Source: Cystobasidiomycetes sp. EMM_F5 (Eukaryota). Taken from it: a stretch of 64,000 nt of DNA. Location of the stretch: NCBI GenBank assembly GCA_051047955.1, contig JBPGPT010000011.1:1-64000 (forward strand), in the 5' to 3' direction. The notes beneath the pieces were generated by a model. The model searched no databases, was not told the DNA's origin, and saw only the letters and a list, made by a program, of their open reading frames with translations. This document shows positions 11,601 to 51,601 of this stretch, in pieces. Numbering within the stretch: position 1 is the stretch's first letter; the number at the start of each line of letters is the position of its first letter. A program made the translations under genes and the position numbers.

Positions 11601-14381
11601 ATGTCCCGTTATATCAGCCGGACCGCCAGCGAGGATATAAGTGACAAAGCATCCTCCTTTGCCGATGGAGTAGAGAAGGGACAAATTATCTACAATGATC
11701 ACGTACCGCAGTTGGACACTATCACCGAGCAAGATGAGCATGGCCATGTCGGTCTCGCCGCTTACGAGCAATCCAAAAAGATGGCAGCTATAGTAAGGAA
11801 GACTGACTGTGTTGTGATCAACGCACATCTAATTTGCTGCTGTGCAGACGCCCGAACAGAACAAGCGGCTTCTCCGACGAATCGATTGGTTCTTGCTTCC
11901 ACTCTTCCTGGCAACCCAGACGTTGCAGTATTTGGATAAGGTGAGTTTAGTATATCAGAATCGGTATTAGTGCCTGATAGGTCGCCCGCGCTGATACTAC
12001 TGCATTCTAATGCAGACTGCCTTGAATTACGCCAAAGCGAGTCACCTCCGTCGATGATGTTTCTATCTGTTCTCTAAAGTTGTCATTCAGGTCTTTGGCA
12101 TGGAGCAGGAATTCGGTCTGCAGGGTGAGATTCGACCAACATACAAATTACGACAGCATCAATTAAGTAAAATGTCACCAGGCCAGCAATACGCTCTATC
12201 GGCATCGATCTTCTACATCGGCAAGTCTTCATAAACGCAACTTTTGAGTTGTGGCTGATTTTTAATTATGCTTGCACAGGCTATCTCGTCGCTCAGCCTT
12301 TTTGTCAGCCTGTCTTCATGTCCAATTCTGCCGTCCCTTATCTCGTCTGCCTTATCTTTAGGGTCGTACCTTATTGGGCGATACCACGCTGGGCGGATTC
12401 TTGGTGGATCAGCAGTCATGTAAGCACTGACGTACTGACCTGCTGTGAGTTTAAGTCGCTGAAGTATGAACGCACAGCTGGGGAATTACGGTGGGCAGCT
12501 CGCCTTACGATTGCTAAAGCGCTTCCCGACTGATTGCTTTTGTTTGATTAGGTACTCATCATTCCCTTCTCCAAGAATTTTGCAGGTGTCATGAGCACTC
12601 GTTTCTTCCTCGGAGTTTTCGAAGCAGCAGGTGGGGTTTTCTCCTTTTGCGAACGCATGCCAAACATATCAAGTCTGAATATCCCATTATCGACTGGCAG
12701 TAACTCCTGGACTTTCCTTAATGACTGGGTTTTGGTACACACGACAGGAGATGCCTCTTCGTCAGACCATATGGTATTCGGCGATTGGTTGGGGCGGCAT
12801 GATCGGTAAGATCCCGCTGTCACAGACCTGTTCGGTGATAATATTCACTAATAGTTCTCTGAAACGTTCTTGTCGTTCAGGGGCGCTCATGGCGGCGGGG
12901 ATCTCCAATGTTTGTGACCCGTCGGATCTATAAGATTGTTCAATTCTACTAACGGCTAGGTACAGCTGCAGGACACACCTCAACTGAAGCGGTATCAGCT
13001 CATTTTCTATCTTCTCGGAAGTAAGACAATATCTACACACCTGCCGCGCCCCACTTGCTGACGCTATGGTCTCCGAAAGGTATCACTATCGCTCTGGGTG
13101 TCGGTAGGGCAGGCAACATTGCATACCGGAAATTGACTAACTTATAAGCTACGCAGCACTTTACTTCTTCTTGGCCGACGGTCCATCCAATGCCTTCTTC
13201 CTAAAGAAAGAGGATCGCCCGCTGGCAGTTGCACGTGTGGCAGATAATGGTGTGGGAATCAAACAGAAGAATTTTGAATGGAAATATGGCTTTGAGGCCC
13301 TCAAGGATCTCAAGCTGTGGATGCTGGTTAGTGGCGAGCTGAAACTGTGATTTGATGTCGAAATGCTGACGGTCGTGTCTACAACAGACTTTGGCAATGT
13401 TTGGATCTTCCGTACCGAACGGTTGGTTCTGAGCAGGCGAATATCCAACTTTGGCTGAATACGTTCGCTTGTTGCACTAGGTGTCCTCACAAATTTCTCC
13501 GGTCCCATCATGTGAGCTTTGCGTGTATTGTCGCGGCGCGGCGGAGTCTGATGAACAGGACTGTATTACAGTAAAGGCCTCGGTTTCAGCACTATCAATG
13601 CTGCTCTTCTAGACTGCGCGGGTCGCTCATTCCAAGTCATATCCCTGATCATTGCTGGTTGGGCTTCGACTAGATGGCAAAACAACCGGCTCTTCATGAT
13701 GACCATTGGGAATTTGATCTGTGTCCTGGGCTCTGCCTTGATGTCCTTCCTGCCTTTTAATTCCTCGACCACCTGGCCGCGCCTTATTGGCTTTTGGCTG
13801 AGTGAGTTTGGCACACTGGCTCCGTGAAGCCCTCTGTCTTATGCTGCCCATCAGTCAACTGCCAATCCATCGGATTCACCCTTGGACTTGTCATGATCTC
13901 CTCGAACATCGGAAACTACTCGAAACGGACCGTAACGTCGTCCTTCGTCTTCTTTGCTTACTGCGCAGGTCAGTAGAACCAAGCAAAAGTAGGATTCAAG
14001 GCTGAGTGCCGCACAGGCAATGCGCTCGGACCACAATTCGCTTTCGAGTCGGAGGCCCCTCAGTATCGTTCTGCCGCGTATGCCATGCTTGGCGGCTACG
14101 TCGGTAAAACGATATGCCATCTCATTCCCTGGTTTTATGTGCATCATACTCCGCGCTTACGTACAGGATGAAGCTGACTGTGATCATTGTTAGATGTGGA
14201 AGGACAACAAGAAGCGCGATGTGGCATACGGTCCCGCTGATCCCAAGATTGCAGCCGATCTTGGCATGCAAGGGAAGAGCGAGAACGAGAATCCAAACTT
14301 CCGGTATGTGCATCTCTGTATTCGCTGCCTGGCTTTGTGCTGCTTACGTGTAATCTGCCTGTTACCAGATACGTGCTTTGA
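11601..14381 (+). CDS. MFS transporter, anion:cation symporter (allantoate permease/Dal5-like) family, many short exons
   Basis: IDWFLLPL...LQYLDK-TALNYAK-VFG, FYIGYLVAQP, RFFLGVFEA, WYTRQEMPLRQTIWY, SNIGNYSKR, and the typical end ENENPNFRYVL*. Confidence 0.9.
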
Positions 14382-34863: not shown

Positions 34864-36295
34864 TTAAAGCTTGGCTGTTTTGTCTTCTGCGATCGTAATC
34901 ATCATCTTGCCAGTATTAGCACCCTCGAACAGCCCGTTTAGGGCTTGCGGAGCATTCTCGAGGCCGTATATAACCGTTTCCTTTCGCTGAAGTTTGCCCT
35001 CGGCTATCCAAGCTGCCATTTGATGCTCGGCTTCACGATATCGTTTCGCGTAATCGAAAACGATGAAGCCTTCTATACGGGCTCGTTGGGCGATAACGTT
35101 GAGGTACGATTGCAGGCCCTTGGGCTTTTGAACGTTGTATTGCGATATAGCTCCACACATGACGATTCTTGCATGCGGATTCAGCCTTGTGAGCGCAAAA
35201 TCCAGCATATCCCCTCCGACATTGTCGACTGCAGGCAAGTTCAGCACGACTTCAGTATAAAGCTATACATCCTACCCTACAGAAAACATCAAGGTACCCG
35301 ATCGCCTTGAACTTCTTCAGGAAATCAGGCGCCTTGTAGTCAATGGCTGTTATACCCAAGTCTTTTTCAAGCCACTGGCACTTGTCCCGCCCGCCAGCGA
35401 TGCCATAGACTTTGCACCCCTTGATTTTGGCGATTTGACATACCTGGTTATAACGATGTCAGCAAGATAATCCGCGTATTCCACGATGTCCTATACGAAC
35501 CGCGCTGCCCACTGCACCCGCAGCTCCAGACACAACAACCGTCTCCCCTGATTCAATTTGACCTAAAAAGGCCAGGTCAATACCTGTTGGATACGCAAAT
35601 ACTCCAATTTGTACGAACCGACGTCAAGAATCCCCCAATACGCAGTTTGACCTGGGTAATTCGAGCGTCAGGAATATCACAAGTGTTCTAGTGCGTACAG
35701 CACTGACCGGGCATCCCGAGGATGGCTAAAAAGTCAGTCAGTCTGGCACCTTGCGGAGGTACTCTTTTCACGACTCCCTTGGCCGGCAGTACTGCATACT
35801 CGGTCCAGCCTGTACCCTCAATATCTTAGGTCGTGCGTGTAGTATTAGTCGAAAACTTATACGTACCTACTGTCCCCTCTACCCAATCTCCAACGTTGAG
35901 CTTATCCACAGAGTTGCTTTTAGCAACAATTTTTCCCAAACCTCCAGCACGCATAACGGCTCCGATCTGCACGGGTTCAATATATGACCTAACATGTGCA
36001 TATGCTCAGTTCCAGTGTGAATGTTCTTTGCCGCGTATGTAAACGTACCGAGTGTCTCGGAGCCATCCTCTCATAGCTGGGCAAGAACGTAAGGTCAGCT
36101 GAGCATTGATTGCCTTTCCAAGTTCCAACGCACATACTCACCAGGATCAATGGAGAGATGGTAAACTTTGATGAGTACTTCGCCAGACTTTAGCGAAGAT
36201 GCATCGGGAATAGGAGCAGTTTCGAGTCTGAAAGTGTCGGCTTGAATAGGACCGACAGGCCTCTTGGCAAGAACTAAACTCTTGTACGATGTCAT
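34864..36295 (-). CDS. NADP-dependent oxidoreductase (MDR family, prostaglandin/alkenal reductase-like)
   Basis: LAKRPVG, LSIDPAMRGW, VVVSGAAGAVG, DNVGGDMLD, CGAISQYN, GFIVFDY, GANTGKM. Ends AKL*, a PTS1-like peroxisomal signal. Confidence 0.92.
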
Positions 36296-48867: not shown

Positions 48868-49696
48868 CCTTCCTCTGACCGAGTATACAAACAAGTGCTC
48901 GTCAGCGTCTGCGTCACAGTCGACAGCTCGGCGTAGCGTTCACTCGCGTGTCCAAGGTGAAATGCTGTTGCTGTGCCCTATACCATCCTGCCGTCGATGA
49001 TTTGTTGGGCAGAGCTGAAGTCACGGCTACGCATCAAAACAAATCCCCCCTTTGAAAACTCATCACGTGATCATGCAAATTATTGCCTTGCAAAAAGTAG
49101 TCGCGCAAAAAGTGGGTACACGACGTTGTGTTCTGACAGACAGTGTGCGGGTACTATCTAGATGCACGTCGAGCTGATGGATGAATGGGCAGCGGATACA
49201 TCTGCAAAGCATTAATGGGGCCACCACTGGCACCCTCAGTCTCTCAGTCAGTAGCCGCCCATCAAACACGCCATCTCAGCTCGACAACGCAGTACTGTTT
49301 GCAATAGGTAGCTGTAGCAATGACACGTCGACGTCATTCCTGCAAGATGCTCGGTAGTGGACTTTGAAGAGCAGGCACTTTACACCTCACTTACCATGCA
49401 GTGCAGCAAGACGGTGTACCGTACACTGCAGCTGAAGATGCCAGAGTAGACAATGATTAAGCTGTTCAGAATTGAAATTCAGCATTACATGTATACTACT
49501 GTCCTTGCGTGGTGTCGTTCAAAGGCATCACAATGCCGGCATTTGCAGCAGAACGTGTGCACAGGATGGCTTGCATGATTCAAAACAGGAGGCTAGACCG
49601 ACGTGGAGGGCTGGAATGGCGACGAGTAGACTTAGTGTACTCTGTGTCAGTTTCGACTTGCATTTGCACCCACCTCTGGCAAACCTTACAATAATA

Positions 49697-51601
49697 ATGT
49701 CCACCTCGTCACTGCTGCGGCAGCCGTTCAAGGCTCTCACTCTGGCCTACGCAAACCGGCAGTCTGCCAAAACGACGACGACGACGACCATGCGCTCTCT
49801 CGGAAAGAAGATGTTTACCGCTATCGGTGCAGTCGAGGACGACTGGCCAATGTACTCTGCCAACCCAGACGACTACGTCTTTGGCGAGCCAGTAGGGTAC
49901 GGAGCGACATCGGTCGTCTACAGCGCGACCTACAAGAACCAGGTCGTTGCAGTCAAGGTCATGGAGATTGACAATATCGCAATGATGCAGAGGGAGGTAA
50001 AGTTGATGTCGCTGTCGAAACATCCAAATGTGGGTTCCGTTTATTTGCCCCTTTATCAGCATGTATGAGATCACGACTGATGCCATTGCTTCTTCAGGTG
50101 CGTGCAATTTGACGCAGCCGAGGCGTCTTCCAGGACTGACAGTATTGCATGCACTCCTCTTGTCACCTCAGGTGAGTTGTGTCAAGTTTGTTACTCTGTT
50201 TGGTCGTGGAAAGTGACGACTTGTACCTTTTGCTCTCACTCTTGCGGCCCCAATCATTGCTCTTGACCTTGCCGCTGTCTCTTGTACTTTGTCTTGTATC
50301 GTCGCAATGGTCTGCCGCTCACACCTCACAACGCTACATGATTCAGATCCTGAGAGTACGAGGAGATTGGGTTACCGGAACATCTCTGTGTATAGCAACA
50401 CGGTTGATTCCGCATGGCTCGTTGCTTGATATTAGTGAGTTCCGTACGCAGATTTGCTATGACTATGTCCTGAAACAGTTTGATCACCTGCCCTCCAGTC
50501 GAATACGGCTTTCAAGACGGGATGGATGAAGTGACGTGTGCAACAATTCTCAAACAAGCAGCCGAGGGTATGCAATACCTTCATGTCAACGGCTGGCTGC
50601 ATCGCGACATCAAGGCAGGAAATCTACTGGTCGATACAGACGGCACAGTCTTGATTTCGGATTTCGGATGCTCCTTTCAGGTGGCAGATCGGGATATGCG
50701 AAAGTCTTTTGTAGGCACTCCGTGCTGGATGGCTCCGGAGGTCGTCGAGCAAAGGCCGTATGATAGTAGAGGTAGGCTTGCTGCTTCATGGCCTCAAAAC
50801 AGCGCCATGGCTCATGTACACGTCTGCATTGCCATCAGCCGACATTTGGTCCTTTGGAATCACCGCTATTGAATTGGCAACTGGCAAAGCGCCCGGAAGC
50901 TTGTATACTCCCGCACAGATACTTTTAAAGACAGTGGCAGAGAACGCTCCGACGTTAGATATTCACGCTCAAGCTCATCCCTTCTCAAAGACCTTCAAAG
51001 ACATGATTGATGCATGCTTGCAAAAGGAGCCCAGCAGGAGGTGTGCGCTTGTAAAATGAACGAGGGCTGTACGGTTACTGATGCTTCTTGAGCTTTGCAG
51101 GCCTGCTTCGGATAAGCTCCTTAATCACGCTTTTTTCAAGCAGGCAAAGAAGAAGCAGTACCTCGTCAACACTATTCTGGCCGACCTACCACCTGTACAG
51201 ACTCGACAAACGCGAAGTTGGTCAAATTGGATATACTAGACACCACTCTTGTACTGATGCTGCTTTGCCTTGTTTCAGGAGCTCGACAACTCTCCGGCAA
51301 GCTATCGACAAGAGCCAACATGTCTGTTTGGGATTTCTCAAACTCGCCTATTGTAGATCAATTTCGCGATTTCTCCATGAATGCGCCACCTTCGACTGTC
51401 GCAACTCCTGTGCACAGTCGCTTTCCATCTGATGCGTTTGGTCCGACAGATGCCATCGACGAGGACAAGGATGCGGTCGCTCCGTTGTCGCCGAGGAATC
51501 GAAAGAGGGCGAGCTTGTCGGTATTACATCGAAGATCAGTGTCGTTCAAGGACATTCCGGAGGTTCTGCCAGAGAACGCAGACGCGAATGATCCTGCATG
51601 A
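49697..51601 (+). CDS. STE20-family Ser/Thr kinase, OSR1/SPAK/FRAY-like
   Basis: [79 protein letters not shown]. Confidence 0.92.

Follow-up and report, generated by a model that had tools for sequence, protein, structure and literature searches.

A 317-nucleotide kinase intron in a leaf-surface yeast divides into three abutting intron-like units: a candidate for recursive splicing at two zero-nucleotide exons

Why is the first intron of a protein kinase gene in a leaf-surface yeast about five times as long as the local norm, and how might it be removed? The question is raised by contig JBPGPT010000011.1 of Cystobasidiomycetes sp. EMM_F5 (GCA_051047955.1), of which positions 1 to 64,000 were analyzed as a single stretch of 64,000 nucleotides (nt), hereafter the window. 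The kinase gene lies on the + strand, and its model was built from reading-frame continuity and homology. Exon 1 (49790-50029) is translated as 80 codons running from M1 to ...LMSLSKHPN, ends in phase 0 and aligns with the N-terminal kinase region of the homologues P0010, P0031 and P0012. Exon 2 (50347-50434) encodes a conserved kinase-domain segment of 29 residues plus 1 base and aligns with the homologue pattern [VI]LRVRGxWxxGxxLxIAxRxMxxGSxLDI. Between the two exons, the join HPN|ILRV is split by 317 nt at 50030-50346. Since the aligned homologues keep this segment contiguous (LMSLSKHPN[VI]LRVRGxW), the 317 nt must be missing from functional messenger RNA (mRNA). By comparison, the other introns of the kinase gene measure 64, 67, 60 and 62 nt, and 24 other putative introns of the window range from 50 to 80 nt, with a median of 61.

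The intervening sequence divides into three complete intron-like units, all on the + strand, which abut with 0 bases between them. Unit 1 (50030-50097, 68 nt) begins with the donor GTGGGT and carries ACTGAT at 50076-50081, with the putative branch A at 50080, 17 nt before its end. In unit 2 (50098-50171, 74 nt), the donor is GTGCGT and the branch motif ACTGAC occupies 50135-50140, its putative branch A at 50139 being 32 nt from the end; in unit 3 (50172-50346, 175 nt), the donor is GTGAGT, GCTCAC occupies 50317-50322 and the putative branch A at 50321 lies 25 nt from the end. Each unit ends in CAG, and the AG positions place each acceptor at the first AG within usable distance past its branch motif. 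In length, units 1 and 2 are within the 50-80 nt spanned by the 24 putative window introns. The two points of contact, CAG|GTGCGT at 50095-50103 and CAG|GTGAGT at 50169-50177, form the first and second zero-nucleotide-exon junctions. The first-pass annotation of this DNA, which had described three abutting units at HPN|ILRV joined by two AG|GT junctions with no bases between them, proved exact in both motifs and coordinates.

The interior of the intron was shuffled 20,000 times with dinucleotide composition preserved, and a junction site was defined as YAG|GTNNGY. No such site was present in 19,035 shuffles, one was present in 948 and two in 17. With branch motifs included, tilings into two units were obtained in 205 shuffles and tilings into three units in none. 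The three-unit structure is not a product of chance. Across both strands of the window (128 kilobases (kb)), YAG|GTRNGT occurs seven times, and in three of these CTNAY lies 8-45 nt upstream; two of the three are the junctions of this intron, situated 74 nt apart. The third strong AG|GT-plus-branch site is an ordinary 3' splice site before an exon starting with GTATGT. It mimics a ratchet point and belongs to an oxidoreductase-like gene on the - strand (35386-35510; GETVVVSGAAGAVGSAV | CQIAKIKGCKVYGIAGG), where the intron end ACCAG is followed directly by the exon start GTATGT.

Splice-site strength was scored in bits with a position weight matrix (PWM) trained on the 24 other putative introns of the window, which had been picked by open reading frame (ORF) continuity. 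The training donors had a median of 8.2 and a minimum of 4.0 bits; training acceptors, scored together with their branch sites, had a median of 13.1 and a minimum of 8.2 bits. At the intron start, the outer donor (50030) scored 7.8 bits, as compared with 9.2 and 10.9 bits for the internal donors at 50098 and 50172, the latter ranking among the top 0.03% when all 7,557 GT sites of the window are considered. Similarly, the internal acceptors and their branch sites scored 14.1 bits (50097) and 12.4 bits (50171), and the terminal acceptor with its branch site (50346) scored 9.4 bits, the weakest of the three. In strength, the internal splice sites equal or surpass the outer ones. When joined to exon 1, the regenerated donors AAT|GTGCGT and AAT|GTGAGT scored 7.9 and 9.6 bits, respectively, versus 7.8 bits for the outer donor. 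At both junctions, AG stands next to GT inside a sequence wholly absent from mature mRNA; each internal acceptor has, at the sequence level, its own branch site and first suitable AG; and at that same level a donor is regenerated after ligation to exon 1. Read in this way, the intron has the arrangement by which recursive splicing at zero-nucleotide exons is defined.

Because the internal sites match or exceed the outer ones and lie far beyond chance, stepwise removal is the pathway best supported by the sequence, and we consider it reasonably probable that the three units are removed stepwise or independently via two zero-nucleotide exons. Stepwise removal had also been put forward in the first-pass annotation; the strength of the internal sites and their departure from chance speak for that proposal, and the pathway itself is one that we infer. 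Introns of 50-80 nt belong to the regime in which fungi recognize introns as units, i.e., intron definition. Under this regime, the spliceosome would match a donor to whichever good branch site lies nearest and to the first AG beyond that site. For the donor at 50030, a branch site close to consensus would come into reach, with an acceptor 68 nt downstream, well ahead of the final acceptor. Because donors would pair with the nearest branch site and AG, the pre-mRNA would most likely be processed in up to three reactions. Removal of unit 1 would join exon 1 to GTGCGT and recreate a donor, AAT|GTGCGT; removal of unit 2 would recreate AAT|GTGAGT; and removal of unit 3 would yield the HPN|ILRV mRNA. 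As every unit is self-contained, the units could also be removed independently, and whatever the order the end product would be the same. Use of the internal acceptors would be harmless because a strong donor directly adjoins each of them, which is the logic of ratchet-point recursive splicing. The likely benefit would be that 317 nt are dealt with as pieces of 68, 74 and 175 nt.

Several observations weigh against this pathway. Unit 3 is 175 nt long and has the weakest acceptor, and from its length it follows that the yeast can evidently remove introns that far exceed 80 nt, so that the argument for a need to subdivide loses weight. The branch-to-acceptor distance of unit 2 (32 nt) is greater than that of 23 of the 24 training introns when the wider branch pick [CT]TNAY is used; in a stricter branch table, 22 of the 23 training introns with a motif had it at 8-26 nt and one at 43 nt, the 24th intron being without a motif. 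The PWM was trained on a small heuristic set, i.e., 24 putative introns, four of which come from the kinase gene itself. Finally, a looser donor definition gave six more AG|GT-plus-branch sites in the window besides the two described here, and no second case was found among the two of these that were inspected, both being ordinary exon/intron borders, with the remaining four (18891+, 39072+, 57166- and 30155-) viewed by short flanking open frames alone. As a separate observation, a transporter-like gene on the + strand (13800-14020) has an exon ending in TACTGCGCAG that is followed by a 48-nt intron at 13969-14016 (GTCAGT...CACAG). This intron would fall slightly below all 24 putative training introns in length.

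The length of unit 3 bears equally on the possibility that the 317 nt are a single ordinary long intron. In that case, the donor at 50030 would be spliced through a branch site near 50321 to the acceptor at 50346, and the internal AG|GT junctions would be unused decoys or relics of growth. The outer sites are adequate for such a reaction, given that the donor (7.8 bits) and the acceptor with its branch site (9.4 bits) both score above the training minima, and a distance of 175 nt can be bridged, as unit 3 shows. Furthermore, a 131-nt AG-free run before the final acceptor would permit the use of distant branch points. Recursive events are also rare, with only one case reported genome-wide in Cryptococcus neoformans (10.1101/224170). 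One-step excision, however, would have to pass over two acceptors that outscore the final one (14.1 and 12.4 versus 9.4 bits), each of them directly before an above-median donor. Such a combination of acceptor and donor arose in none of the 20,000 shuffles and is otherwise absent from intronic sequence among the window sites inspected. In general, unused strong 3' sites within an intron are harmful under intron definition. We regard one-step excision as unlikely, though by no means far-fetched.

Unit 3, which holds the AG-free run, is pyrimidine-rich and contains short direct repeats (TTGCTCT..., CTNTNTCTTGTA), and 50214-50344, the 131-nt stretch without AG ahead of the final acceptor, is 67% C+T. 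AG-free runs of at least 131 nt were present in 90 of 5,000 composition-matched shuffles and in 4 of the 4,140 AG-to-AG intervals on the + strand of the window. This stretch looks like an AG-exclusion zone or, alternatively, like the outcome of slippage-driven growth of unit 3. A finer division of unit 3 was considered and rejected: its only non-terminal AGs are at 50175, 50185 and 50212, and none has GT next to it. The intron as the host of a small nucleolar RNA (snoRNA) or another structured RNA was likewise rejected. In an Rfam search of 49600-50800 at E<=10, the sole match was an implausible long non-coding RNA at 49925-50008, mostly within exon 1, with 17.2 bits against a gathering score of 80. 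No unusually stable fold of the intron was found, the folding z-score being +1.05.

We next consider what incomplete processing would produce. The first-pass annotation had pointed out that none of the unit lengths is a multiple of 3. This is correct for each unit singly; units 2 and 3 together, however, make 249 nt, which is divisible by 3. The product for units 2 and 3 nonetheless reaches an in-frame stop after 4 codons, and all six partial-splicing products, when translated, end prematurely, 4 to 14 codons past HPN. Because all six partial products stop early, unfinished transcripts would be non-productive. The further idea of a regulatory switch acting through nonsense-mediated decay (NMD) is speculation, drawn solely from the premature stops in these predicted products.

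A further alternative would be a poison exon. In this scenario, units 1 and 3 would be real introns and unit 2 (50098-50171) a 74-nt cassette exon, the inclusion of which would cause a frameshift and NMD and could set the kinase dose. Unit 2 does lie between a strong acceptor and a very strong donor, its inclusion would give KHPNVRAI-stop, with the stop after 4 codons, and an ab initio gene finder picked it as an exon. In Schizosaccharomyces pombe, splicing is coupled to NMD in at least one gene (10.1101/226894). Unit 2, however, is of normal intron size and has full intron signals of its own (GTGCGT, ACTGAC and CAG). An mRNA that retains it would, because of those complete signals, be a still-spliceable intermediate. 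Exon skipping is, in general, uncommon in fungi that use intron definition, and regulation is without support here. The poison exon shares its intermediate with the stepwise or independent removal that we favor, and differs from it only in that inclusion would be stable and possibly regulated. We consider it quite improbable.

Unit 2 is also treated as an exon in the deposited gene model, which gives a protein of 399 residues (P0001). There, the donor at 50002 leads in frame into unit 2, which serves as a coding exon of 24 residues, and 50347-50434 is assigned to an intron. The translation of unit 2 corresponds, with 100% identity, to an odd 24-residue segment of P0001. Within 50002-50498, the joins of P0001 run from 50001 to 50098, through the exon 50098-50171, and from 50171 to 50499, such that exon 2 is lost. 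Although the deposited model is in frame, it removes LMSLSKHPN and the segment ILRVRG...LLDI, both of which are kept by the aligned homologues, and adds 24 residues that have no counterpart in homologues. The donor it requires at 50002 (GTTGAT) scored 0.6 bits, below every training donor. According to the genome announcement, annotation was performed with funannotate 'predict' and BUSCO training on DNA reads only, without RNA sequencing (RNA-seq) (PMC12697161). As the annotation was made from DNA reads only, the model is without transcript support. The deposited exon model was rejected on the homologue alignment, the annotation method and the donor score, and we give it almost no chance of being correct. 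The deposited protein is very probably wrong, as judged from these comparisons, with the abutting introns as the cause of the mis-annotation. Where no RNA-seq is available for a fungal genome, abutting introns would accordingly be one way in which annotation goes wrong.

In order to place the intron in a comparative context, we examined its position in related sequences. A metagenome scan provided 80 loci, the best of which had 57-61% protein identity over exon 3. An exon-1 match reaching HPN was found in 40 loci, a partial match in three and none in 37. Of the 40 that reach HPN, 39 continue straight into kinase sequence, many of which may be transcripts. The other locus, L024, has a 76-nt intron (L024:137-212) at exactly the same codon boundary. 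The genome announcement names no sister taxon with a genome (PMC12697161), and the nearest relatives in the protein database are known from short ORF fragments (P0002, P0003 and P0121-P0123). In 3 of 3 such fragments, LMSLSKHPN is followed by non-kinase sequence within 2 to 14 residues. On this sequence evidence the intron position is old and common to relatives, and the site probably held a single short intron of ordinary kind at first, which then grew in this lineage. The branch region of the L024 intron (GGACTGACAG) is a 10-mer identical to that of unit 2 at 50133-50142, which, given the protein divergence, most likely reflects a shared consensus.

Growth of this kind could in principle have involved an introner-like element, i.e., a mobile or repeated sequence of which copies landed beside an ancestral intron of about 70 nt and provided the extra units. 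The normal-sized 76-nt intron at the same position in L024 would suit such an origin, and introner families are reported from about 5% of eukaryote species (PMC9860276). On the other hand, the best off-target blastn-short match in the 64-kb window, among the matches listed (all to unit 1), was 11 nt long, and the units resemble one another only in the junction motif TCAG|GTG(C/A)GT. Within the window, an origin of the units by repetition or duplication has no support from these comparisons, and an introner origin appears very improbable.

How does the kinase intron compare with known systems? The first-pass annotation had set it against AG|GT ratchet points, described as known mainly from long animal introns, and against fungal twin introns. 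The former description is outdated, and the twin introns are arranged differently. Fungal precedents for recursive splicing at zero-nucleotide exons, which speak for the pathway favored here, already exist, and one of the known cases is in a protein-coding gene of a basidiomycete. In C. neoformans BOT1/CNAG_07884, a 375-nt intron is processed as 210+165 nt via a zero-nucleotide exon, as established by spliceosome profiling (Burke et al., 10.1101/224170). BOT1 resembles the present gene in being a protein-coding gene of a basidiomycete yeast with short normal introns (10.1101/224170). BOT1 is, however, split at a single pivot point into two units that each far exceed the standard intron length, whereas the kinase intron has a second pivot point and a third unit, with two of its three units of standard size. 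BOT1 is proven by junctions, branches and 3' ends, whereas the kinase intron is known from DNA sequence alone.

Two further fungal systems involve non-coding genes. In S. pombe SPNCRNA.445, the host of snoRNA61, a 336-nt intron contains one or more zero-length exons, and the splice sites are conserved in related species (Chen et al., 10.1101/226894). The likeness lies in a fungal intron of about 330 nt, an acceptor adjoining a donor and a genome of short introns. SPNCRNA.445, however, is a non-coding snoRNA gene of an ascomycete, whereas the host here codes for a kinase and no Rfam family was found in its intron. Similarly, the snoRNA polycistrons of Candida and Debaryomyces have zero- and one-base exons and undergo recursive splicing (PMC5033589). 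These clusters share with the present case the adjacent introns, the exon size of zero and the yeast host, but they are non-coding and have a snoRNA in each intron, in contrast to a coding gene in which no embedded RNA was detected.

The animal and twin-intron systems are more distant. Recursive splicing in animals concerns very long introns, of tens of kilobases, and depends on exon-definition features. The kinase intron, by contrast, comprises 317 nt in all, with each piece definable as an intron of its own. What it has in common with the ratchet points of Drosophila and vertebrates is the AG|GT juxtaposition, by which a 5' splice site is formed anew once the first ligation has taken place (Duff et al., 10.1101/006163). 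In the spliceosomal twin introns (stwintrons) of filamentous fungi and Lipomyces, the internal intron sits within the donor, branch or acceptor of an external one, which remains non-functional until the internal intron has been excised (PMC5639578, PMC7138796, PMC6616335). Stwintrons are likewise complex intervening sequences of fungi that are removed by consecutive standard splicing, and they are often exposed by an oversized intron in an automatic annotation. They are, however, nested and order-dependent, whereas here all motifs are continuous and the order of removal is free. A stwintron interpretation, whether sensu stricto or sensu lato, was rejected, as the units abut without overlap, their motifs are intact and nothing is nested. 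The authors who described stwintrons in fact distinguish them from 'abutting U2 introns excised by recursive splicing', which they place in a class apart (PMC6616335).

If the three units are indeed removed via zero-nucleotide exons, the kinase gene would be another case in a fungal protein-coding gene, C. neoformans BOT1 being the only one of that kind that our literature searches yielded. It would place two pivot points within only 317 nt and in units of normal intron size, and would lend support to the view that recursive splicing follows generally from intron definition rather than being a speciality of giant animal introns. The intron would also provide a compact and easily mutated test substrate. 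No fungal coding gene with two zero-nucleotide exons in one intervening sequence was found in our literature searches, the scope of which did not extend to the supplementary tables of 10.1101/224170 and 10.1101/226894. A more ambitious joint reading is that, in this short-intron yeast lineage, intron definition imposes a size ceiling, that long introns persist only as tiles of canonical size, that new introns are added against old ones, and that the resulting obligatory chain, with failures removed by NMD, acts as a kinetic checkpoint on the dose of the FRAY/OSR1-like kinase. We consider this combination quite improbable; were it to hold, the intron would be the first example found in print of two zero-nucleotide exons in a fungal coding gene.

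As regards the host gene, the kinase model comprises six exons, with a product of 413 residues after splicing. Exon 2 is followed by an intron of ordinary size (intron 2, 50435-50498, 64 nt), which is placed by a frame-consistent homology model. Exon 3 (50499-50771) encodes the catalytic loop and the APE motif, and exon 4 (50839-51040), which matches P0001, is separated from it by intron 3 (50772-50838, 67 nt). Intron 4 (51041-51100, 60 nt), which has a branch region (TTACTGATGC) resembling that of unit 1, precedes exon 5 (51101-51216). Intron 5 (51217-51278, 62 nt; branch region GTACTGATGC) precedes exon 6 (51279-51601), which ends with a stop codon and encodes a C-terminus identical to that of P0001. 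All of these features lie on the + strand. Exon 3 is 100% identical to P0001, the source label of which is hypothetical protein from a cystobasidiomycete yeast isolate, and 47-72% identical to the 119 other matches listed, many of them fungal and named STE20/FRAY, OSR1 or kinase-like. Database matches of exon 3 bear PF00069/PF07714, and their sources label several of them STE/STE20/FRAY or OSR1. With the catalytic loop and the APE motif present, together with the named homologues, the predicted product is a STE20/FRAY (OSR1/SPAK-like) protein kinase.

Two minor observations concern the 5' part of the gene. The start of intron 1 (50030-50040, GTGGGTTCCGT) differs from that of intron 2 (50435-50445, GTGAGTTCCGT) by one mismatch in 11 nt, a likeness that exceeds the donor consensus and may be due to chance or to an extended donor context. 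In P0122 and P0123, the ORF fragments from relatives, the exon ORFs start just before ...GFGATS..., whereas exon 1 is uninterrupted here (49790-50029). This suggests that these relatives carry an extra intron within exon 1, which was either lost here or gained there.

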